In this document: in pieces, positions 6,794 through 55,962 of the stretch
How the letters are laid out: every line of letters starts with the position of its first letter
Position numbering within the stretch: position 1 is the stretch's first letter
Origin: an uncultured Christensenellaceae bacterium
Lineage (GTDB): Bacteria; Bacillota; Clostridia; Christensenellales; DTU072
Assembly (NCBI GenBank): GCA_964432485.1
Contig: CAYSNP010000004.1
Coordinates: 24,319 to 87,395, forward strand
Reading direction: 5' to 3'
DNA length: 63,077 nt
Notes under the pieces: generated by a model
The model's database searches: none
Seen by the model: only the letters and a program-made list of their open reading frames with translations
What the model was told of the DNA's origin: nothing
Translations under genes and position numbers: made by a program

Positions 6794-7902
6794 TTAATGT
6801 AATGAGCGTATTATTTGCAGCCGGTAACGATTCTAAATTAAATGAGTTAACAATCCATAGAACAACCGCATCTATGCCTTTTGGCGGCAGGTATCGGCTT
6901 ATTGACTTTACCCTAAGCAATCTTGTAAACAGCGGTATAACTACAATAGGCATTATTACCCGCAGCCATTACAGCTCGCTTATGGACCATATCAGAATGG
7001 GGCGTGATTGGGACTTAAACCGTAAAAACAGCGGGATAGCAGTATTTCCTCCTTATGCGTACAATATCAATCACGATGTTTTCAAAAGTAAGATAGAAGC
7101 AATACATACCATACTTGACTATATAGAAAAAGCCAAAGAGGATTATGTAATAATCAGCAATTGCAATATAGCGGGCAATATGGACTTTGATGCCATATAC
7201 AATGAGCATATAGAGCAAGGCGCAGATATTACAATCCTGTGCAAGCGTTTGCCTTCTACTACCGGCAGGCGTATTATTATAGAAAAAGATGCTGGCAATA
7301 ATGTAACGGATATGTATGTTTCTGAAAGCGCAGGAGAGGAAGAGCATCTTATTGGGCTGGATATTTACCTAATGAAAAAAGACCTTTTAATCAATTTAGT
7401 CAGTCATGCCTTTGCGCACGGTTACAATGACCTCGAAAAGGATATTTTATTCAAATTAATTGGCGTAAAGCAGTTGAAAGCCAAAGAAATAACCGGCTAT
7501 GTTTCCATAATAGACGATGTCAAGACTTACTATTATGAAAGTATGAAATTGCTGGACAGAAAATTGAGGGATGAGCTTTTTTCTGAACAAAATAAGATAT
7601 ATACCAAAATAAAAGACAGCACTCCTACCAAGTATCTTTCCAATGCAATAGTTAAAAATAGTCTTATAGCAGACGGATGCCAAATTGACGGTGAGGTAGC
7701 AGATTCTATCTTATTCCGTAATGTAACAATAGAAAAAGGTGCTAAGGTTAAAAATAGCATAATTATGGAAGGCGGACATATAATGCAAAACTCAACTATT
7801 AGCTATGCCATTACAGACAAATCCGTAACCATAAAGGAAAACCGCAGCATTTCAGGTTATCAGTCTTATCCTGTTGTTTTGGTAAAAAATAAGGTGATTT
7901 AG
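6790..7902 (+). CDS. glgD: Glucose-1-phosphate adenylyltransferase subunit GlgD
   Basis: [40 protein letters not shown]; ATGA overlap with the glgC stop. Confidence 0.93.
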
Positions 7903-7904
7903 CA

Positions 7905-9326
7905 ATGAAAATACTATATGCAACCTCAGAAGCTGCACCATTTTTGCGTTCAGGCGGACTAGGCGATGTAGCAGGCGCATTGCCAAAAGCATTGCTTAAA
8001 GAAGGTGTGGATATTAGGGTAATTATGCCATTTTATTCGGGCATCCCGCAAAATCTTAGGAAAGAAGCGCAGGCTTTGGGCTCTTGTACCGTGCAACTTG
8101 CTTGGAGAACGCAGTACGCAGGTGTATATTCTGCGCTATATGAGGGCGTAACATATTATTTTATTGACAATGAGTATTACTTTGCAAGAAAAGAATTATA
8201 TGGTCATTATGATGATGGTGAGCGATTTGCTTTTTTTGCAATGGCAATACTGCAAACAATGGAGCTTACAGGCTTTTATCCCGATGTGTTGCATTGCAAC
8301 GATTGGCAAACAGCGCTAGCCCCGTTATTTTTAGATGCTTTTTATAGAAAGGGAGAAAAGTATAGCAATATTAAGAGTGTGCTAACTATACATAATATAC
8401 AGTATCAAGGTAGTTACGACACCTATGTAATAGGGGATGTCTTTGGTATCCCTGAGAGCCTGGCTAACATAGTATGTTATAACGGTAGTGCCAATATGCT
8501 AAAAGCAGGGATAGAATCTGCCAATATAGTTACCACCGTATCACAAACTTATGCGCAGGAGATTCTTACTTCTTATTTTGCTTATGGGCTGGAGGATATA
8601 CTTGCTCAAAGGGCATATAAGCTAAAGGGCATAGTCAACGGTATTGATACAGAAAAATATAATCCGCTTAAAGATAAAGCTCTAAAAGTCGGCTATTCCT
8701 GGCGCAGTCCCGCTCGTAAGGTGCAAAATAAAAATAATTTGCAAAAAGGGCTGGGGTTAGAAGTTTGTGACAAGCCGCTGATAGGTATGGTCACAAGGCT
8801 AACAGGGCATAAAGGGCTGGATTTAGTAGTTAGGGTATTGCATGATATTCTTAATTTGGGTATCCAAATGGTGATTCTGGGTACCGGAGAAAGGGAGTAT
8901 GAGCTAGCATTGCGTAAGATTATGGCAGAAAGAGCGGACAATAGATTAAGGGTAAAGATAGCCTTTTCTGACGAATGGGCAAGCAAAATCTATGCCGGAG
9001 CTGATATTTTTTTGATGCCTAGCAAAAGCGAGCCTTGCGGGCTGGCGCAGCTCATTGCCTTGCGTTATGGCACTATCCCGGTAGTGCGGCGCACAGGCGG
9101 ACTTGCTGATACCGTGCAAGCATTTGATTTGGGGAAGGGGACGGGCAACGGTTTTGATTTTGTAACTTACAATGCGCATGATATGCTGGATGCGGTACGC
9201 AGAGCTGTAAATACTTATTATAATAAGGATTTATGGAAAATTATTATGAAAAATGCTATGAAAGGAGATTACTCCTGGAATAAATCCGCAAAGCTATATA
9301 AGGATTTGTATAAATCTTTGACTTAA
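7905..9326 (+). CDS. glgA: Glycogen synthase
   Basis: RSGGLGDVAGALP (KxGGL-type), HCNDWQT, TIHNIQYQG, MPSKSEPCGL. Confidence 0.97.
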   Translation: MKILYATSEAAPFLRSGGLGDVAGALPKALLKEGVDIRVIMPFYSGIPQNLRKEAQALGSCTVQLAWRTQYAGVYSALYEGVTYYFIDNEYYFARKELYGHYDDGERFAFFAMAILQTMELTGFYPDVLHCNDWQTALAPLFLDAFYRKGEKYSNIKSVLTIHNIQYQGSYDTYVIGDVFGIPESLANIVCYNGSANMLKAGIESANIVTTVSQTYAQEILTSYFAYGLEDILAQRAYKLKGIVNGIDTEKYNPLKDKALKVGYSWRSPARKVQNKNNLQKGLGLEVCDKPLIGMVTRLTGHKGLDLVVRVLHDILNLGIQMVILGTGEREYELALRKIMAERADNRLRVKIAFSDEWASKIYAGADIFLMPSKSEPCGLAQLIALRYGTIPVVRRTGGLADTVQAFDLGKGTGNGFDFVTYNAHDMLDAVRRAVNTYYNKDLWKIIMKNAMKGDYSWNKSAKLYKDLYKSLT

Positions 9327-30810: not shown

Positions 30811-33297
30811 ATGAAAAAGATGCTAAAAGAACTATATTTTTTTGGACTACTTATTTTATTTACTTTACTGCTTAGCTTAAATAGCCCATTGTCCATTAAT
30901 GCATATGCTAATAGCGTTGGCATTATTTTGTATTTGGATAACTTTGAAGGGAATATTAGCATCCACGATGAGTTGTACAATAATGATAACGAGTCTTTAT
31001 ATTATATAGAACCTGAAGAAGAGTACAGAGCAGTTTCATCCGATATTTCTGGTTACGAAATTACTTTTTGTATAATGCCTACCAATCCTTTTATAGAATA
31101 TCAAGTTCAAATTGCAGAAGGAGAAATCGAATATTTTGCAGGAAATCAATGTTTTGTATGGATAAAAGATGCACCCTCTTGTAATATTACTCTTGGAGTT
31201 AAACAAGAAGAGGAAGCAGAGCCGCCCGCACCGCTTATGCTGATTGTAGAGTTTGATATAGGCGACGGCACAACTTTAGATGGGGATTTACTAATTCAAG
31301 AAGTGGCAGAAGGCGGCTCTGCTATAGAGCCGGATATTATCCCTCCTGAGGGCTATGATTTTCAGGGCTGGGATACTCCTTTTTCCGATATTTCATCAGA
31401 TATTGCAGTAAATGGAAAGATTACCATAAAAGCTGAATACAAAATATTAAAGTATCAAGTTAATTACTATACGGAAGGCGGGCTTTTTTCCACAATTGAG
31501 CAAGAATATAACTCTCTTTTAAAATTGCCTCTTAATGACCCTATTATGGAAGGGCATTACCTTTTGCATTGGGAAGACGAGAGTCAGATAGCCTACGACG
31601 AAACTTATAGAGTAACTGCAGACCTAGCTTTACATGCTGTCTTTAAGCGCAATCAATATACAATTACCTTTTATGACGGAGAAGCAGAGTTAGGAGAAAA
31701 AGTAGCCCTATTTGGTGATATTATACCCAAAATATTAAATCCGCAAAAGGACGGGTATAGCTTTGAAGGGTGGTATACTGATAAGAGTTTTCAAAACAAA
31801 TTGATTTATACAAGCGATAGCCCCATTGTGGAAGACAATACCGCTATATATGCAAAATTTCAGCTTAATAACATTATAATAACTTATAAGGACAACTTGC
31901 AAGGGGAGTATCAAACGCTTCAAGCCCCCGCTTTTAGCGTGCTGGTACTTGCCCCTGCCCTTACCATTGGCTATAAGATAGCAGTACAAGCAGTAGACTC
32001 CCAAGGAGCAGAATATGCAATAGAAAATATGGAGGTAACTTGCTCCTTTTATAATATAGAAATTACTTACACTTACGAAAAAGATACTTTTTATTTAGCA
32101 TTTGAATGTGCCCTTTTGCCTAGCATTGCTCCCGATACCATAGAAGCCCTTTTTGAGGAAGCAATTAACTTGCCTACTGTAGAAGAATACGGTTACTCCT
32201 TTTTAGGTTATTATCAAGACGAGCATTTTTCATTGCCTGCAGAATATATGACAATGCCTTACTCTGCCAATACGGATAAGACAACTACTCTATATATTAA
32301 GCTGCAAAAAAAGCAATATAATATTACTTTTGACTCTCAAGGCGCTCAAGAGTTTGATACTGTTATAGCAGAGTATATGGACAGCATTGACTTAGACGAA
32401 TACCGTCCAAATAGAGAAAATATGCTATTTTTAGGCTGGTTGGATTCTTTCGGGCAACTGCAAGAGCCTTTTAGCGGCACTTTTTTAGTAGAAAGAGATA
32501 CCCTTTTTACTGCAGTCTTTCAAATGATTAAAGAAAACTTTAATATTAGTTTTGTACTGCCAAGTTCCCTTACCTTTGATTTGCTTGACGGGCAGGAATA
32601 TGTTATTCCTGTAATATGCCCTGACACAATTACAATTAAGTATAAAGAAACGCCGGACATTCTTCCCGACCCGCAAGCGGAAGGACATATCTTTTTGGGC
32701 TGGTTTACAGATAGGGAGTGTGCCCAAAGCTATACTCCTTTGCCTATTGCTGATGACATTATCCTTTACGGATTATTCGAAACAGTTACGCTTACAGCAA
32801 CTTTTTGGTGCCGCAATCAAAAAATTGTCAAGAATGTAGAATATTACTCTCCTATGCCCACGCTGAACCCTTTAGAGGTGATAAGCGAATACTATACTTT
32901 TACAGGTTGGGATAAAACTGTTGACTATATCACCGAGGATATTGAATTTATTGCCCTTTATACCCCTTTATATAATATTGTTGTGCTTGATAAGGCCAAT
33001 CAAATGATAATAAGACCGCACGATTGCAAGCTGGATGCCTTTTTATCCTCTTTGGATTTAGCTCTTGAAGAAGACGAAGTTTTTTTGGGCTGGAAGCTGG
33101 AAGTTTATGACCAAGACACAAATACTTTTGCCTATGTGCCCAATATAGTTAAGACAACTCAATCGGGCATTATAGACGAAAAAGATTTAATGCTACTTTG
33201 CTCCCTTATAGCTAACTTATTATTGCTTGTATCCCTTATGCTAATCATTATTTCTTTTAAGGTCAAGGCAAAGACATTAAAATTGAAAAAGTTTTAA
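30811..33297 (+). CDS. Acidic surface protein with ~8-9 InlB-B (Listeria/Bacteroides)-type repeats and a C-terminal membrane anchor
   Basis: Signal peptide; recurring Y.ITF...P..EGY.F.GW..D...LYAKF units; hydrophobic C-terminus followed by a Lys-rich tail. Confidence 0.8.
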   Translation: MKKMLKELYFFGLLILFTLLLSLNSPLSINAYANSVGIILYLDNFEGNISIHDELYNNDNESLYYIEPEEEYRAVSSDISGYEITFCIMPTNPFIEYQVQIAEGEIEYFAGNQCFVWIKDAPSCNITLGVKQEEEAEPPAPLMLIVEFDIGDGTTLDGDLLIQEVAEGGSAIEPDIIPPEGYDFQGWDTPFSDISSDIAVNGKITIKAEYKILKYQVNYYTEGGLFSTIEQEYNSLLKLPLNDPIMEGHYLLHWEDESQIAYDETYRVTADLALHAVFKRNQYTITFYDGEAELGEKVALFGDIIPKILNPQKDGYSFEGWYTDKSFQNKLIYTSDSPIVEDNTAIYAKFQLNNIIITYKDNLQGEYQTLQAPAFSVLVLAPALTIGYKIAVQAVDSQGAEYAIENMEVTCSFYNIEITYTYEKDTFYLAFECALLPSIAPDTIEALFEEAINLPTVEEYGYSFLGYYQDEHFSLPAEYMTMPYSANTDKTTTLYIKLQKKQYNITFDSQGAQEFDTVIAEYMDSIDLDEYRPNRENMLFLGWLDSFGQLQEPFSGTFLVERDTLFTAVFQMIKENFNISFVLPSSLTFDLLDGQEYVIPVICPDTITIKYKETPDILPDPQAEGHIFLGWFTDRECAQSYTPLPIADDIILYGLFETVTLTATFWCRNQKIVKNVEYYSPMPTLNPLEVISEYYTFTGWDKTVDYITEDIEFIALYTPLYNIVVLDKANQMIIRPHDCKLDAFLSSLDLALEEDEVFLGWKLEVYDQDTNTFAYVPNIVKTTQSGIIDEKDLMLLCSLIANLLLLVSLMLIIISFKVKAKTLKLKKF

Positions 33298-37610: not shown

Positions 37611-37647
37611 TCAAGTGTAACACTTGCAAAAAAAAAGGAGGCCGAAA

Positions 37648-39441
37648 ATGAAAAATAAAAAGATATTAATTTTAGTTTTATTATTAACATTACTGCTAGT
37701 TTTTAGCTTAGGAGGCTGTAGCTTTCTGGCAAGACTTTTTGGTAGGGACAATGGCACAGATGATGAGCCATCTCCTACAGACCAACCTTTAACTGAACAA
37801 GAAATATTGAATTTAACAAGCAACCCTATTGATACATCATCCAGCTTTACGCTATATATTGTCATTGACACAATGGGCGTATCGGGTATGACGCAAATAG
37901 ATTGCCAAGTAGTAGATGGTATCCCTAATCTCCGAATAGAGAAAGAAAACGATGATGCAACAGGTACAGAGGAGACTTATATATTAAAGCTAGCCGGAGA
38001 GTATGGCTTTCAACAAATAGAGGTAAGCAGATCTTATGTCGGCGAAACTACTACTAAAGTAAAAAGGTTGTCCGAAATACAAGCGCAAATGAAAATGAAC
38101 AGCTTAATTCTTGATACAGTTCCCTTTTTACATGAATATATTCCTGAGATTAAGAAGTTAGGATTGCTGGCAAAATCTTATGATAGCTCTTTGGGCAACT
38201 TAGAGATGTCAGGCGTGCGTCATATCAATGCCCAAAACCAACTTGAATCTATAGAAATCAATGCAAGCTCAAAGATAGTGCTAGATTTTGTTAACAGAGC
38301 GGGTGCATTTAGCTACTATAATAAATTCAACTCTCAAACTAAATTGACTGAGGCTAAAGTACAATTCATATTGGATAAGGAGTATCTGCCTACCAATTAT
38401 GATTACGAAACAACCAGCAAAAAAGATATTCTTTCTGCTAATGTTTCAATAGAATATGGCAATGTTAGCATACAAACTCCAAATCTTGACAATGCTATTA
38501 ACCTTGATGCTTCTGAAATTCAAATTCAATTGGTTGATAATTATGGCGTTACTCTTGACGGACTTTACCAAGAAAGTTTTATAACAGGGTCAGAGATAGG
38601 GGCAGGCGATGTTAATATGTCAGCGCAAACTGTTGAAATGCAGTTTCAAGGTATTTATTATGATTCGGATTATAAATACCCTATCGGCAACACTATAAAT
38701 ACCGGATTTACTACCCCGCTAAGATTATATTGTAATTGGAAAGGAACAAAAGTTAATTTACAACTAAATGGCGGTGTTCTTGAAGAAGAACAAGAGTATT
38801 TTATACTTGGTAAGTATACGGATCTTGAGCCTATCAGATCGGGATATGAGTTTGGCGGCTGGTATAAAGACCAAAACTATACAGAAAAATTAGAGAGTTG
38901 GGATGCAACGCTAACAGATACCGCAATTACCCTTTATGCAAAATGGACTCCCTATGTAAAAATTACCCTTAATGCAGGAGTAAGCTATAAGCTTCTACCA
39001 ATTATCGGTGTAGCCGGCAAGCCAATTGCTTATCCTGTCGGAGATGCTATTAATAAAAAAGGGCATTTATTTGATGATTGGTGGCAAGATGCGGCTCTTA
39101 CTCAAGTTAAACTTGCAGCCTTCCCTGCTGCTTCTACAACGGCATATGCCTCTTTTAAGGAAGCCTGGGTAGTTACTTTATCTCAGCATGCCGATTATAA
39201 GCTGGATCACTTGCCCAAATATGTTAATATAGCAAAGAATCCTGCCAATCCTGCAACTGCTTTTAATGCACTTATTCAAAAAATAACGGAAGGTAATAAT
39301 GCTATTACTTTTGGCGGCGAGGGCGGAGGCTATATTTTTGATAAATGGTATCTTGATAGTGCTTTCACTACTCCTTTTACTGAATATCCTACCGGTAATA
39401 TTACTTTATATGCAGGCTTCAAAACAGCACAGCCAATCTAA
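37648..39441 (+). CDS. Lipoprotein with C-terminal InlB-B-type repeats (paralog A)
   Basis: SD AAGGAGG; lipobox LGGC; PIRSGYEFGGWYKD...ITLYAKW; collinear with 39560-41314. Confidence 0.8.
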   Translation: MKNKKILILVLLLTLLLVFSLGGCSFLARLFGRDNGTDDEPSPTDQPLTEQEILNLTSNPIDTSSSFTLYIVIDTMGVSGMTQIDCQVVDGIPNLRIEKENDDATGTEETYILKLAGEYGFQQIEVSRSYVGETTTKVKRLSEIQAQMKMNSLILDTVPFLHEYIPEIKKLGLLAKSYDSSLGNLEMSGVRHINAQNQLESIEINASSKIVLDFVNRAGAFSYYNKFNSQTKLTEAKVQFILDKEYLPTNYDYETTSKKDILSANVSIEYGNVSIQTPNLDNAINLDASEIQIQLVDNYGVTLDGLYQESFITGSEIGAGDVNMSAQTVEMQFQGIYYDSDYKYPIGNTINTGFTTPLRLYCNWKGTKVNLQLNGGVLEEEQEYFILGKYTDLEPIRSGYEFGGWYKDQNYTEKLESWDATLTDTAITLYAKWTPYVKITLNAGVSYKLLPIIGVAGKPIAYPVGDAINKKGHLFDDWWQDAALTQVKLAAFPAASTTAYASFKEAWVVTLSQHADYKLDHLPKYVNIAKNPANPATAFNALIQKITEGNNAITFGGEGGGYIFDKWYLDSAFTTPFTEYPTGNITLYAGFKTAQPI

Positions 39442-39453
39442 AAACTAAACTTG

Positions 39454-39486
39454 AGCCCCGCTTAAGTGCGGGGCTTGCTTTTCTTT
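39454..39486 (+). terminator. Intrinsic terminator
   Basis: AGCCCCGC, 6-nt loop, GCGGGGCT, then a T-rich tail. Confidence 0.8.
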
Positions 39487-39487
39487 A

Positions 39488-39516
39488 TTGACAAACGGGT
39501 AAGAATGCCTTACAAT
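39488..39516 (+). promoter_or_regulatory. sigma-A promoter
   Basis: TTGACA, 17 nt, TACAAT. Confidence 0.8.
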
Positions 39517-39559
39517 TTAAGTAAATAATGGAGAAGCAAAATCTCAAGAGGAGAAAAAT

Positions 39560-41314
39560 ATGAAAAGTAAAAAATTGTTAACGCTAACTTTATTGCTGCT
39601 ACTAATATCTGTATTGACTCTTTCTGCATGCGGCAAACGGCCTGATGGTCCTACGCCAACACCTGATGACCCGCCTGTGTTACAACATCCTCTTAGCGAA
39701 CAAGAAATAGCTGCCTTATTTACAAAGCTAGTGGATACCAGCTCAAGTTTTACCCTAAACAAGACATACTACTCAGGCGGAAGTGACAGCGGGGTAGAGC
39801 TAAAGTATAGTGCGGGGACAAGCCCTAAGGCATATGTTGCTGACAGATATGAGCAACAAGTAAGCGAATATTATTTGGGTAAAAAGGGAGATACTTATTA
39901 TTACTTTGGAATTGAGGATTCAGATGTAGGATATCAAAAACTTACTGATATTCAATTTCAGTTATTAATAAATGATTTACTTGAAGAGTATACTATTGAC
40001 TCAGATTTTTTTGTAATGTTAAACCAAGATAGTATAATAGCTAAAAGTATTGACGAATCTCTTGGCATTGTTAGTTTAGCAGGCACACGCTTTGTTAATG
40101 AGCAACAGGAATTAGAGCGCATAGAAATTACTGCTTTTTGCAAAAACGCATATGGTTATTTTGCAGAAGCTGTCAACTATTCTTTTGAATTTGATAATCA
40201 AGAGCGACTTAATAAGATAACGTATGATAGCCAAATAGATGCTGAGTATCTGCCTACAAGCTTATCTTTAGACATGCAAGAAGAATACAATAGCAGCAGA
40301 ACAATCACAATTGAGTATGGCGAGGTAGAGATTACATTGCCCGGACTTGCTGACGGAGAAGATATAAGTGCGTCTACTGTATCATTATACTTAGTTGATA
40401 GTTACGGAGTAGAGTTATCAGAATATAGTTTTGACGCAGACACAGAAATAACTATTGCAGACTATCTATCCGTACCTGAAGCTGTTGAGCCATTTTTTGA
40501 AGGGCTGTATTATGACTACCAGTACCAGCATCCTGTAAGCAATACTTTAGAATTAGGTTGCTTCCAACACTATGAACTTTATTGCAAATGGAATATTCCA
40601 AAGGTAACATTAGAGCCTAACGGAGGACAGCTTTTATTTTCTCAAACGCTATATTCGCTAAATGATTGTTATTATTACGACCCCGTACGAACAGGTTATG
40701 CGTTTGCAGGATGGCATGCGGACTCCGAGTTGACCCAAGAAATTGACGAGGACAATTACGACCTTATAGTTGCGCCTATTACGCTTTATGCAAAGTGGCA
40801 GCCATATGTAAAGGTGGTATTTAACGCTGACTTAGGCTATAAAGTGCTACCCAAAATAGGATTAGAAGGCGAAGAAATTTATTACCCTGATACCTATATA
40901 GCTAAAAAAGAATATATCTTTAGAGGCTGGTATTCAGACGAAGAAACGGCTATCCCTGCGCCTATGCAATTCCCTGCCAGCTCTATTACGGTTTACGCTC
41001 AGTTTGAACATGCTTGGTGTATTACTTTTGTGCAAGACCCTAAGTTTAATATTAAATATTCTACCAAATATATTAATGTAGAAAAACTGGCAGAGCCTAC
41101 GCAAGACGATTTTGAGGGAGTATATACATCAATTACTTACCATTTTTATCTTGTAGACGGAGATGGAGAGCGAAGAGTCTTTGACGCTGGCGGCGGCAAG
41201 CGCTATATTTTTGACGACTGGTATACAGACCCATCTTATTTACACAAGTTTTCCGAATACCCCGATGCAAACATGGTGCTATACGCTAAGTTTGATATTT
41301 ATAATCCTGATTAA
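39560..41314 (+). CDS. Lipoprotein with C-terminal InlB-B-type repeats (paralog B)
   Basis: Lipobox LSAC; Pro-rich linker; DTSSSFTL, EYLPT, LVDSYGV, PVRTGYAFAGW, ITLYAKW match paralog A. Confidence 0.8.
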   Translation: MKSKKLLTLTLLLLLISVLTLSACGKRPDGPTPTPDDPPVLQHPLSEQEIAALFTKLVDTSSSFTLNKTYYSGGSDSGVELKYSAGTSPKAYVADRYEQQVSEYYLGKKGDTYYYFGIEDSDVGYQKLTDIQFQLLINDLLEEYTIDSDFFVMLNQDSIIAKSIDESLGIVSLAGTRFVNEQQELERIEITAFCKNAYGYFAEAVNYSFEFDNQERLNKITYDSQIDAEYLPTSLSLDMQEEYNSSRTITIEYGEVEITLPGLADGEDISASTVSLYLVDSYGVELSEYSFDADTEITIADYLSVPEAVEPFFEGLYYDYQYQHPVSNTLELGCFQHYELYCKWNIPKVTLEPNGGQLLFSQTLYSLNDCYYYDPVRTGYAFAGWHADSELTQEIDEDNYDLIVAPITLYAKWQPYVKVVFNADLGYKVLPKIGLEGEEIYYPDTYIAKKEYIFRGWYSDEETAIPAPMQFPASSITVYAQFEHAWCITFVQDPKFNIKYSTKYINVEKLAEPTQDDFEGVYTSITYHFYLVDGDGERRVFDAGGGKRYIFDDWYTDPSYLHKFSEYPDANMVLYAKFDIYNPD

Positions 41315-53570: not shown

Positions 53571-54596
53571 ATGGAAAAGAAAATTGTTAATAGAGCGCGC
53601 TGTGCCAAAGAGCTATTTGAGCAAGGGCATAATTGTGCCCAATCAGTATTGTTACCTTTTTGTGAGGAGCTGGGTTTGGAAAAAGATATGGCCTTGCGCC
53701 TTGCTTCTTCCTTTGGAGGAGGTATGGGCAGGCTAAAAGAAGTATGCGGTGCGCTTACTGCCGCCTTTATGGTTATAGGCTTAAAAAAAGGGTATACATA
53801 CCCCGTTACTAGCGAGCAAAAGGAAAAATATTATTTGCTTATCCAATCTTTTGCCGAAAAGTTTAGAGAAAAGTACGGTTCTATTTTATGCAAAGACCTT
53901 AGAGATTGGAGCGGAGAAATGCCCCACCAATGCGCAACAATTGTAGAGTTTGCGGCACAAATGTTAGAAGCGGACATTATGAATTTATTTGACCAACAAT
54001 GCAATGCTTATGATGCTTGGTTTGACAGGCATCCTAATAAATACGCATCAGAGTTAGCGGCAATTAAAGAGTTTGTTCCTTTAGGCAAAGGGGGCATAGA
54101 GATTGGAGTAGGCACAGGGAGGTTTGCTTCCCCTTTGGGTATTAATGTGGGGGTTGAGCCTTCCGCAGGTATGGCGGCGCTTGCAAGGGCAAGAGGGATA
54201 AAGGTAATAGATGGGCAAGCGGAAGACTTGCCGTTACCGAGTGAAAGCTATGATTTTGCGCTTTCAGTTACCTCAATTTGCTTTTTTAGCAACCCAAAAG
54301 CTGCTTTACAAGAAATTTATAGAATTATTAAACCCAAAGGATATTTGGCAATTGCCTTTGTAGACAAGGATAGCAAGCTAGGCAAACAGTATCAAGAGCG
54401 AAAAGCCGCAGGGCATTCTTTTTACAAAGCCGCAAGTTTTTATTCTGTACAAGAAGTGCTAAATATGCTAACCTCCGCAGGCTTTAAGAATTGCGAAATT
54501 AAGCAAACCCTAATAAGCGACCAAGATATACCGGAGCAACCCAAAGATGGCTATGGTGAAGGTAGCTTTATAGTTATTAAAGCGTGTAAAGGGTAA
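53571..54596 (+). CDS. C_GCAxxG_C_C-family domain fused to a class I SAM methyltransferase
   Basis: HNCAQSV, SFGGGMG, VCGAL, ILCKDL, C; then EIGVGTGRF, GVEPS, AEDLP, ICF. Confidence 0.8.
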   Translation: MEKKIVNRARCAKELFEQGHNCAQSVLLPFCEELGLEKDMALRLASSFGGGMGRLKEVCGALTAAFMVIGLKKGYTYPVTSEQKEKYYLLIQSFAEKFREKYGSILCKDLRDWSGEMPHQCATIVEFAAQMLEADIMNLFDQQCNAYDAWFDRHPNKYASELAAIKEFVPLGKGGIEIGVGTGRFASPLGINVGVEPSAGMAALARARGIKVIDGQAEDLPLPSESYDFALSVTSICFFSNPKAALQEIYRIIKPKGYLAIAFVDKDSKLGKQYQERKAAGHSFYKAASFYSVQEVLNMLTSAGFKNCEIKQTLISDQDIPEQPKDGYGEGSFIVIKACKG

Positions 54597-54597
54597 A

Positions 54598-54721
54598 GTA
54601 CTGCCTAACGGCGGCATTATGTACCACCTAATGGTGGCATTATGTATCAATGCTGACGCATTGACATTATGTATTGCCTAAAGGCAACATTATGTACCGC
54701 CTGTCGGCGGCATTATATGTA
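54598..54721. repeat. Array of five sequence-variable hairpins joined by a constant CATTATGTA linker
   Basis: Linker at 54615, 54638, 54665, 54688 and a variant at 54711; inserts CTGCC-taac-GGCGG, CCACC-taat-GGTGG, TCAATGC-tgac-GCATTGA, TTGCC-taaa-GGCAA, CCGCC-tgtc-GGCGG. Confidence 0.93.
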
Positions 54722-54762
54722 GTATTAACTTATATGTAAAGTTGAGCTGTGCTTGCGCATGT

Positions 54763-54985
54763 CCTGGATTGCTTCGTCGCTTATTTATACCCTCGCATTG
54801 CTCACGCAATTGCTCGTGGGCTCCCACTACTGACTTGCCACAGGCAACTCAGCTTAACGCGTCGCCTCTCGCAAAGACGGTAGAGGATAAAAGCCTTGCT
54901 ACCGTAAGCCCTGGATTGCTTCGTCGCTTACACTGCTCGCAAAGACGGTAAGAGTGTCATTGCGAGCGACAGCGAAGCAATCCAG
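54763..54985. repeat. BIME-like composite of three REP-like elements (direct and interrupted, direct, inverted)
   Basis: cctggattgcttcgtcgctta...ctcgcaaagacggta twice, then gtcattgcgagcgacagcgaagcaatccag (reverse complement of the same element). Confidence 0.88.
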
Positions 54986-55054
54986 ACCCTCAAAGCCTTG
55001 CTTCTTGCCTTACCAATCCCACCTATTTCATCACGCGTTAGCGTGTATTAATGT

Positions 55055-55936
55055 TTACCAACCTCTTACAGAAAATAGGTTTTCTTTTTCAATATTGCCA
55101 ATATTAATCCCTGCCATTGCTTCGCCCAAATCTTCGCTAAGGGCGGCTAATAGGTTAGCATCATTATAATGAGCTACAGCTTTTACAATGGCATTTGCTC
55201 TTTTATCGGGATTGGCGGACTTAAATATTCCCGAGCCTACAAATACACCTTCGCTGCCAAGTTGCATCATTAAAGCGGCATCCGCCGGGGTGGCAATTCC
55301 GCCTGCGGCAAAGTTTAACACAGGCAAGCGCCCATTCTCGTGCACCCATAAGACCAACTCATAAGGTGCGCCCGTCTCCTTAGCAAAGCTCATTAGCTCT
55401 TCCTTTGGCACACCTTGCACCCGCCTAATTTCGCCCATAACAGTACGCATATGGTATACAGCCTCCACCACATTGCCTGTGCCTGCCTCGCCTTTGGTCC
55501 TAATCATAGCCGCCCCTTCGCCTATTCGGCGCAGCGCTTCGCCAAGATTTCTTGCACCGCATACAAAAGGTGCGCTAAAAGTATGTTTATCAATATGAAA
55601 CATATTGTCAGCAGGCGTAAGCACTTCGCTTTCGTCTATATAATCCACACCTAACGCTTGCAATATTTGCGCTTCGGCAATATGCCCTATCCTAACTTTA
55701 GCCATAACAGGGATAGTTACCGCTTGTTGAATTTCCTTAATAATTCTAGGGTCGCTCATACGGGCTACTCCGCCTTGTTTGCGAATATCTGCAGGCACTC
55801 TCTCTAGTGCCATAACTGCAACCGCCCCTGCTTTTTGCGCAATTTCAGCTTCCTTGGCGTCAATAACATCCATAATAACCCCGCCTTTTAGCTTTTCCGC
55901 AAGTGTCTTGCCTTTGCTATTCAATTGCTTATCCAT
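55055..55936 (-). CDS. pdxS: Pyridoxal 5'-phosphate synthase lyase subunit
   Basis: [48 protein letters not shown]; ATG 55936 after GGAGG. Confidence 0.97.
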
Positions 55937-55962
55937 TTGCAACCTCCTTTTTTAACTTGTAA

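Follow-up and report, generated by a model that had tools for sequence, protein, structure and literature searches.

We describe here a repeat array in a 63,077-nt stretch of DNA from an uncultured Christensenellaceae bacterium (GCA_964432485.1, contig CAYSNP010000004.1, positions 24,319-87,395 of the forward strand), referred to below as the window. The array lies between two converging genes, one encoding a methyltransferase and the other pdxS, and consists of five different short hairpins joined by a constant 9-nt junction, CATTATGTA. It is real and structured: its stems co-vary while the junction stays fixed. We find that it is best filed among extragenic palindromes and mosaic repeats, with an unusual head-to-tail grammar of fixed junction and variable hairpin and with a built-in promoter-like site, and that it apparently belongs to an undescribed repeat family of Clostridia. 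The reading we favor, with moderate confidence, is that of a dispersed, lineage-specific mosaic repeat module resembling the bacterial interspersed mosaic elements (BIMEs) formed by repetitive extragenic palindromic (REP) sequences, whose most likely working form is an RNA of the minus strand.

An earlier note on this DNA had pointed out five different hairpins and a constant 9-mer recurring at spacings of 23, 27, 23 and 23 nt, and direct reading of the sequence reproduces this description exactly (Table 1). The stems measure 5-7 bp. Exact copies of CATTATGTA number four on both strands of the 63 kb, all of them within the array, against an expectation of 0.73; none of 100 shuffles reached four. 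The note had also argued that slippage duplication does not produce such a pattern. Tandem Repeats Finder makes no call in the region, and the array is therefore not a plain tandem repeat; units 1-2 and 4-5 nevertheless form a diverged block duplication of 73 nt (80% identical), so that the claim stands only in part. The stem differences between the two blocks are compensated (CTGCC/GGCGG versus TTGCC/GGCAA, and CCACC/GGTGG versus CCGCC/GGCGG), and duplication followed by compensated divergence is thus part of the history of the array.

The same compensation is found in units drawn from related loci. Among 17 distinct 14-nt units, 97.6% of the cells in the stems are paired and four of the five pairs have changed on both sides, which bears out the earlier observation that the two arms of a stem change together around a fixed linker. 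The covariation score of these units is 0.547, as compared with 0.252 ± 0.041 in shuffles (0 of 500 reach the observed value), and pairing drops to 22-58% of cells when the register is slid. The folding energy of the array beats that of all shuffles on each strand, with z = -3.25 for the plus strand and z = -4.40 for the minus strand.

The asymmetry between the strands suggests that it is the minus strand that folds. On that strand the junction contributes one G.U and one U-A pair to the stems, which reach 7-9 bp, whereas plus-strand stems are shorter, each being flanked by an A x C mismatch. Plus-strand loops have T as their first base in nearly all units and, for the most part, C as their last (UNNC). 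The corresponding minus-strand loops read G-N(-N)-A: their last base is A in nearly all units and their first base is G in about two thirds of the loop types (GNNA or GNA). Of the four wobble-type mismatches in stems, three read as G.U on the minus strand.

A promoter-like site in the tail of the array is directed into it (Table 1), and its -10 hexamer, TATAAT, derives from the final junction through insertion of AT (TACATATAATG). The hexamer pair occupies the same position in seven of eight arrays of this type (class II, see below) and, in the form TTTATA-17-TATAAT, in L246-248 as well, where L numbers denote the loci fetched for comparison. The predicted RNA, starting near 54705, folds with z = -4.59. 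In the window and in L112, L110 and L193, the promoter-proximal type A hairpin leaves an orphaned 3' arm that is predicted to pair with the distal type A hairpin, closing the array into a cloverleaf-like junction. Both terminal hairpins of L193 have changed together to TCGCC/GGCGA, and three other class II arrays end in type E, not A. Judged from sequence, a promoter of its own probably drives transcription of the array into a small RNA rich in hairpins. The promoter in the tail and the evidence for the minus strand had escaped the earlier note, as had the place of the array in a larger inserted mosaic.

The array is not a singleton. When metagenome contigs were scanned for a three-junction pattern, most matches were plain tandem repeats and the true arrays were L110, L112, L183, L186, L193 and L212; the set of fetched loci is enriched for CATTATGTA tandem repeats. 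At least seven distinct loci of the lineage bear arrays like that of the window, which we call class II, with 2-8 units each. The earlier note had mentioned similar arrays in other Clostridia, and arrays with the same junction and hairpins are indeed found in metagenome-assembled genomes (MAGs) of that class. At their start, class II arrays have (A)AAGTA and then a hairpin of type A (CCGCC..GGCGG); at their end, they have the same tail. Their hairpins are drawn from a small vocabulary made up of A and of types B (CATTGC-TAC-GCAATG), C (CCACC-TAAC-GGTGG), D (TCAATGC-TGAC-GCATTGA) and E (TTGCC-TAAA-GGCAA), in an order that varies by locus (ABECBCDA, ABCDE, ADECBA, AE). All units are head-to-tail. 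Orientation with respect to neighboring genes is mixed, the L193 array standing directly after a trpB-like stop codon and L186b being antisense to both of its flanks. Next to class II arrays there are also long palindromes, 3-4 units of a second hairpin family with the junction GYATTTCAYC, or both. No arrays were found in the viral contigs, phage records and plasmid records that we searched.

Unit number differs between strains, a comparison that the earlier note had proposed. L112 is the same locus in a strain 96.5% identical overall; it has six units (as does L246) against five here, the additional one being of type B, and the two arrays differ further by five substitutions, of which three lie in loops and two give wobble-type stem changes. 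In L246-248, where the methyltransferase protein is the same as that of L112, a six-unit array is accompanied by three second-family units and no long palindromes. The methyltransferase-pdxS gap is accordingly variable, with 279 nt in L246-248, 458 nt in the window and 481 nt in L112. In L245, whose methyltransferase is 70% identical, the DsrE-methyltransferase-pdxS synteny is kept around an 85-nt gap that holds neither array nor mosaic, and L244 (83%-identical methyltransferase) has no array. Because relatives lack the array and close strains differ in it, the array and its mosaic represent a lineage-specific insertion with turnover of modules, not a fixed part of an operon. This unit turnover and insertion polymorphism make the array useful as a strain marker. 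As a separate observation, positions 54658-55049 (392 nt, including the tail and the long palindromes) are identical in L112, where the flanking genes differ by about 4 per 100 nt. Such identity means either strong constraint or a recent homogenization or transfer of the segment.

Exact-protein look-ups with the methyltransferase fusion and PdxS retrieved only one short-read public sample containing the exact strain, in which contigs break inside the array or the mosaic, on both sides. Such elements will therefore be systematically missed in short-read MAGs, since assemblies of short reads break at these loci because of the dispersed hairpin repeat. The L001 contig ends 57 nt past the methyltransferase stop and the L243 contig 83 nt past the pdxS stop.

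Related elements, which we call class I, stand beside PF05635 genes in other Clostridia. A two-junction scan of species-representative genomes gave about 108 stretches, which is about the chance expectation for 18 specified bases; the true arrays among them are L018, L078, L100 and L107, from Clostridia/Christensenellaceae MAGs, and most of the others are chance matches or a gammaproteobacterial coding repeat. In L100, L107 and L183, the array is flanked on one side by a tRNA or 5S gene's rho-independent terminator and on the other by a small PF05635 gene (E = 1e-22). PF05635 is the 23S rRNA intervening-sequence protein family, a four-helix bundle. Three further contigs carrying PF05635 homologs (75%, 65% and 56% identity) have the same layout, each after a different tRNA. 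The layout is thus present at all six distinct loci examined (L100, L107, L183, L233, L237, L241), with PF05635 proteins 56-100% identical to the query.

Class I elements are built in a constant order: the terminator, ATGTA followed by a long helix (TTTTGCGAAC...GTTCGCAAAA), 2-9 hairpins, a promoter and the PF05635 gene. The long helix encloses two hairpins in inverted orientation, joined by TACATMATG and bearing mostly GNA or GNNA loops on the sense strand, and the 2-9 outer hairpins are joined by CATGATGTA or CATTATGTA. The helix itself covaries, reading TTTTGCAT/ATGCAAAA in L107, TTTTGCGAG/CTCGCAAAA in L237 and CAAATTCGC/GCGAATTTG in L241, and the structure predicted by RNAalifold includes it along with the two inner hairpins. 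The left and right junctions of L241 have changed in concert. The whole element is present twice in tandem in L233 and on both sides of the gene in L107. At all six loci the -10 hexamer of the PF05635 gene promoter ends exactly 6 nt before the ATG, which predicts leaderless mRNAs.

The two classes have in common the junction (CATTATGTA in the window, CATGATGTA as its class I form), unit size, loop polarity and the hairpin types TTGCC..GGCAA and CCACC..GGTGG. They differ in that class I has the long helix and an inverted two-unit mini-array and lacks the antisense promoter tail. Class I also adjoins a tRNA or 5S terminator and a PF05635 gene, whereas the arrays of the window lineage are without PF05635: neither tblastn nor the family hidden Markov model found such a gene in the window or in class II loci. 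To our knowledge, the accessory protein Avd of diversity-generating retroelements is the only characterized relative of PF05635, and stand-alone members have no known role. The arrays that precede PF05635 genes at six loci offer a concrete candidate for a nucleic-acid partner of this family.

We propose that the mosaic repeat spreads and is remodeled as DNA, and that a module of it entered the space between the methyltransferase and pdxS genes, which converge. Every unit would be a short hairpin taken from the A-E vocabulary and joined head-to-tail to the next by the invariant 9-nt junction, with units gained, lost and reshuffled through recombination or slippage at the identical junctions. 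On this proposal, the element works as a folded single strand, which would keep its stems paired after duplication. We infer that the sigma-A-type promoter in the tail (TTTACA-17-TATAAT, with a -10 derived from a junction by a 2-nt insertion) fires into the array, and that RNA rather than single-stranded DNA is the active form. The transcript, starting near 54705 and about 110-150 nt long, would consist of 7-9 bp hairpins, mostly with GNNA loops, separated by single-stranded (UA)CAUAA(UG). The hairpins may act as spacers that keep a short repeated motif exposed several times, a layout that would suit a multivalent decoy or a processing substrate for a sequence-specific RNA-binding protein or endoribonuclease that binds or cuts the junction. 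Engineers build non-recombining multivalent RNA scaffolds in the same manner, with a fixed short motif between non-identical hairpins and a promoter belonging to the construct.

Several observations weigh against this proposal. The minus strand has no convincing intrinsic terminator, just a GC hairpin followed by UACUUU, so the transcript may continue antisense into the methyltransferase gene. Counted over class II arrays, the promoter hexamers are no more conserved than their spacer within the tail, so that selection on the promoter itself is not demonstrated, and class I elements show no consistent antisense promoter. The T.G mismatch of hairpin 1 favors the plus strand. On that strand, hairpins followed by the U-rich CAUUAUGU are flagged as weak terminator-like sites, and in two loci the array begins at the stop codon of a plus-strand gene, which keeps a role in the 3' untranslated region (UTR) of that strand among the alternatives weighed below. 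Finally, template-switch correction can keep palindromes paired without selection on folding. Among the mechanisms offered in the earlier note (an RNA-binding-protein or RNase site, an HUH/REP substrate, template switching), an RNase site of the MazF type and a REP-like origin are both treated below as candidate readings.

REPs and BIMEs are the closest known kind of element. REPs are defined by stems mostly of 6-9 bp, rarely 5, by loops of 2-4 nt and by many extragenic copies (PMC3733652); the elements described here have stems of 5-7 bp (7-9 on the minus strand), loops of 3-4 nt and at least seven loci in the lineage. Both are short extragenic hairpins with fixed short linkers, which form mosaics with other palindromes, include compensated sub-types and vary among strains and species (PMC3733652, PMC3116915, PMC3479197). 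Both are often placed between converging genes or just past stop codons and are plausibly transcribed. The polymorphism seen here comprises five versus six units, long palindromes that are present or absent, and the missing array in relatives with 70%- and 83%-identical methyltransferases. In contrast to REPs, which are mostly inverted pairs, a single 9-nt junction joins at least five different hairpins head-to-tail in our case, the only inverted arrangement being the mini-array of class I. The unpaired GTAG tag of REPs has as its counterpart an invariant GTA whose fourth base, C or T, is paired; GTAG itself occurs once, in the tail (54719-54722). The host also differs, as do the promoter-like tail and the lack of a cognate RAYT in the 63-kb window. 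A REP survey reports no REPs in Clostridia, and the present family shows a dispersed modular hairpin repeat in a class not known for repeats of the REP/BIME type.

The earlier note had left room for a match to a described family. Rfam 15 gives no match at the gathering score in the window, only tRNA and 5S matches in ten related loci, and nothing relevant at E <= 10 in 54400-55200. We found no published description of such arrays in a literature search that included the junction and long-palindrome strings (which returned only primers and unrelated hits) and that left most subscription journals outside its reach.

The resemblance to REPs also gives rise to the alternative that deserves most attention, although we consider it rather unlikely: a selfish repeat acting at the DNA level. 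The units would be REP-like mini-palindromes with a 5' GTA tag, spread and amplified as single-stranded DNA hairpins by an HUH tyrosine transposase (RAYT-like) or another enzyme encoded elsewhere in the genome, in which case the promoter-like tail would be fortuitous and neighboring genes would be affected, if at all, as a by-product. Being multi-copy, extragenic, mosaic and variable among strains and species, the family has the hallmarks of REPs and BIMEs (PMC3733652, PMC3116915), and GTA precedes every hairpin on the plus strand. Sub-types with alternative complementary stem residues are normal within REP families (PMC3733652). Class I elements, moreover, have been duplicated along with their terminator (L107, L233), and PF05635 genes are known to be inserted in unrelated loci (PMC3936711). 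This account is harder to reconcile with a tag made of GTA and a paired C or T in place of unpaired GTAG, and with a strictly head-to-tail arrangement that is rare or absent in REP families. Among all large open reading frames (ORFs) of the window, Pfam and NCBIfam scans revealed no gene for a transposase, HUH enzyme, recombinase, nuclease, Nop-domain protein, PF05635 protein or MazF, in agreement with the earlier note, which had seen no transposase or nuclease; L110 has just an unrelated DDE-like transposase ORF. That ORF, at L110(-) 614-1440, is split, appears IS5-like by eye, and lies about 350 nt from one array, co-directional with the transcript predicted for it. A DNA-level repeat would also leave the strand asymmetry of the loops and the near-consensus promoter unexplained. 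Furthermore, genomes that differ greatly in composition keep the same 9-mer junction, an argument in favor of a conserved trans-acting partner.

An element of the plus-strand 3' UTR is a less probable alternative still. Like REPs in E. coli, the hairpin stack would weakly end transcription, block 3'-to-5' exonucleases or stall the terminating ribosome. The array begins 1 nt past the stop codon here and directly past the trpB-like stop in L193 (where TAAAGT overlaps the stop), three plus-strand hairpins with CAUUAUGU were scored as terminator-like, and a bidirectional barrier would be useful between converging genes. Such a role does not fit L186b, which is antisense to both flanks, or the other arrays that lie far from any stop codon, and the syntenic locus in L245 works without an array. 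The plus strand is also the one with the shorter stems, because of the A x C mismatch beside each of them, with UNNC loops and with the poorer z-score.

A special case of the minus-strand RNA reading, which we regard as doubtful, is that the RNA is directed at the toxin RNase MazF. MazF (NdoA) of B. subtilis, Listeria and S. aureus is reported to cut the strict hexamer U^ACAUA and to be a conserved enzyme, with about 80% of the Bacillota reference species having it, Clostridium among them (bioRxiv 10.64898/2026.08.06.743204). The minus-strand junction reads UACAUAAUG, which contains UACAUA; six minus-strand TACATA lie in 54618-54733, versus 27 in the rest of the 63 kb. Four of these would be contained in the predicted RNA, each flanked by two hairpins that would keep the site single-stranded. 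The exposed U^ACAUA sites might then titrate MazF as a decoy, or the RNA might be a precursor cut into 23-27 nt monomers, as in the ToxI/ToxN system. The hexamer match was, however, made post hoc, after several other motifs had been tried, and the invariant core of the wider family is CAU(A/C)AUG (the palindrome CAT-N-ATG), not UACAUA. The variants UACAUC, CACAUA, UGCAUA and GUCAUA occur, L241 is without any such site, and the initial U and A of the site are taken up in base pairs at the hairpin foot. No MazF gene was found in the window or the fetched loci with a MazF query sequence, and the preprint mentions no such RNA (bioRxiv 10.64898/2026.08.06.743204). We hold out only slight expectation for the broader picture in which multi-copy, promoter-bearing RNAs display UACAUA, their sole constant single-stranded element, between non-identical hairpins and serve as a MazF decoy or type-III-like antagonist, or as a precursor processed into 23-27 nt hairpin RNAs, with a related form wired to PF05635 (Avd-like) genes beside tRNA and rRNA operons. 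If true, a natural multi-copy example with the exact MazF hexamer would link a repeat family to a conserved toxin RNase.

Two groups of known RNAs share this layout in part. ToxI, of type III toxin-antitoxin systems, is a series of 36-nt repeats that are nearly identical, with a terminator and the toxin gene downstream of them. Like it, the arrays described here are tandem, promoter-driven series of short structured units, each with an endoribonuclease site (promoter and site being putative in our case). They differ from it in that the units are not alike, no toxin gene follows and the array is present in many copies in the genome: downstream of the array lies the antisense strand of the methyltransferase on the minus strand, and noncoding mosaic followed by the opposite-strand pdxS on the plus strand. 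The sponge RNAs CsrB and RsmZ similarly repeat a short single-stranded motif between or on non-identical hairpins. Here the motif is (UA)CAUAA(UG), not GGA, and it belongs to a dispersed repeat, not to a single conserved gene.

The notion of a guide-RNA array, of the tandem interspaced guide RNA (TIGR) or the CRISPR kind with the variable arms as spacers, is refuted by membership tests and has next to no probability. The likeness is one of superficial layout alone, TIGR stem-loop arrays also having variable palindromic stems (PMC12045711); the TIGR-Tas system was what a literature search on tandem-hairpin arrays turned up. TIGR arrays carry two 8-12 nt spacers flanked by box C (CCA-like) and box D (UG), with a 36-nt period or, in the stem-loop type, two 14-nt box C-spacer-box D intervals; in that type too, palindromic stems vary while only very short motifs are constant (PMC12045711; bioRxiv 10.64898/2026.09.09.750476). 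For this reason both stem-loop TIGR arrays and arrays like that of the window are invisible to CRISPR finders. The units here are 23-27 nt long with 3-4 nt loops, the two variable arms of a unit are mutually complementary and turn up again at other loci, and the neighbors are a methyltransferase fusion and PdxS, the same Pfam and NCBIfam scans having found no Nop-domain Tas gene and no cas gene in the 63 kb. The constant part measures 9 nt versus about 23-48 nt for CRISPR repeats, whose spacers are unique and similar in size to the repeats, and the variable parts are palindromic. The inverted CRISPR-like architecture seen in the earlier note does not hold in a mechanistic sense, the hairpins being recurring types A-E and not unique inserts.

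Other candidates were considered and dropped. By eye, TTATGTA resembles a XerD arm, without the full site of a dif/Xer element, and a Fur/PerR box and a DnaA box were likewise set aside. Mini-ORFs were discarded because the unit length is not a multiple of 3. A UUCG tetraloop was also discarded; the loops of L100 are TTC triloops, with GAA on the other strand.

Table 1. Coordinates of the array, its tail and the adjoining mosaic in the window
Feature	Position	Strand	Remarks
AAGTA, left array boundary, shortened junction	54596-54600	+	Overlaps final A of methyltransferase stop; on the minus strand a U-rich stretch past the last hairpin (UACUU)
Hairpin 1, type A', CTGCC-TAAC-GGCGG	54601-54614		One T.G pair; CCGCC in ortholog L112
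Junction 1, CATTATGTA	54615-54623		Exact 9-mer; minus strand UACAUAAUG
Hairpin 2, type C, CCACC-TAAT-GGTGG	54624-54637		Type also in L110, L186, L193, L212
Junction 2, CATTATGTA	54638-54646		Exact 9-mer
Hairpin 3, type D, TCAATGC-TGAC-GCATTGA	54647-54664		Read from sequence
Junction 3, CATTATGTA	54665-54673		Exact 9-mer
Hairpin 4, type E, TTGCC-TAAA-GGCAA	54674-54687		Related CTTGCC..GGCAAG in L100, L183
Junction 4, CATTATGTA	54688-54696		Exact 9-mer
Hairpin 5, type A, CCGCC-TGTC-GGCGG	54697-54710		Holds predicted minus-strand start (~54705)
Variant junction CATTATATGTA	54711-54721		Complement bears -10 TATAAT (54717-54712)
Promoter-like site, TTTACA (54740-54735)-17-TATAAT (54717-54712)	54712-54740	-	11/12 consensus positions, directed into array
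Conserved array tail GTAGTATTAACTTATATGTAAAGTTGAG	54719-54748		Unique in window; kept after every class II array
Mosaic modules, three long-palindrome arms	54763-54985		CCTGGATTGCTTCG at 54763 and 54910, complement at 54973; absent from locus in L246-248
Second hairpin-array family, single unit, junction CTATTTCATC + ACGC-GTT-AGCGT	55023-55045		Adjoins pdxS stop; three units in L246-248

The gene upstream of the array (53571-54596, plus strand, with its TAA stop at 54594-54596) encodes a fusion of C_GCAxxG_C_C and Methyltransf_11, a class I methyltransferase. It is separated from pdxS (55055-55942, minus strand) by 458 nt of noncoding DNA, with the array at the start of this gap. The other genes of the window have ordinary housekeeping functions; among them are a Firmicutes-type glgB-glgC-glgD-glgA-glgP cluster and dnaX-ybaB-recR.

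Positions 54910-54985 form a long hairpin, and a further copy of the CCTGGATTGCTTCG palindrome is found at position 26 of the window. This long palindrome (CCTGGATTGCTTCG..CTCGCAAAGACGG / GTCATTGCGAG..CGAAGCAATCCAG) accompanies arrays, at 26-60, 54763-54785 and 54910-54985 of the window and at 2440-2545 of L242. It has no Rfam match. Forty nucleotides of it are 92.5% identical to two plasmids of Methylocystis rosea (Alphaproteobacteria), and the palindrome thus occurs across phyla. The second family of constant junction (GYATTTCAYC) and variable hairpin, whose GNA loops are found on the opposite strand from those of the first family, is represented at 55023-55045 of the window and in L246 (3660-3790), L110(-) (1600-1720), L186(-) (280-390) and L212(-) (1420-1510).

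Away from the array, the window contains two neighboring paralogous genes (37624-41314) whose products, about 600 aa long, bear Listeria-Bacteroides repeat domains (PF09479), and an internalin-like leucine-rich repeat protein at 30811-33297.

Two further patterns surfaced outside the lineage. CATTATGTA-N18-CATTATGTA with a conserved, in-frame-looking insert (..TG.T....GG.TAY..) was found in L002, L006, L009, L010, L015 and about 40 other gammaproteobacterial loci; this is probably a conserved coding repeat, unrelated to the arrays. In a Tannerella MAG from a termite-gut-like sample (L017 250-420, L034(-) 7780-8000, L060(-) 260-520), we observed 23-nt tandem units made of an 18-nt palindrome, ATRTAYGYCGSCRTAYAT, with compensated variants, and a constant GCAYT. 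These units show the same grammar in a Bacteroidota genome, possibly of independent origin.

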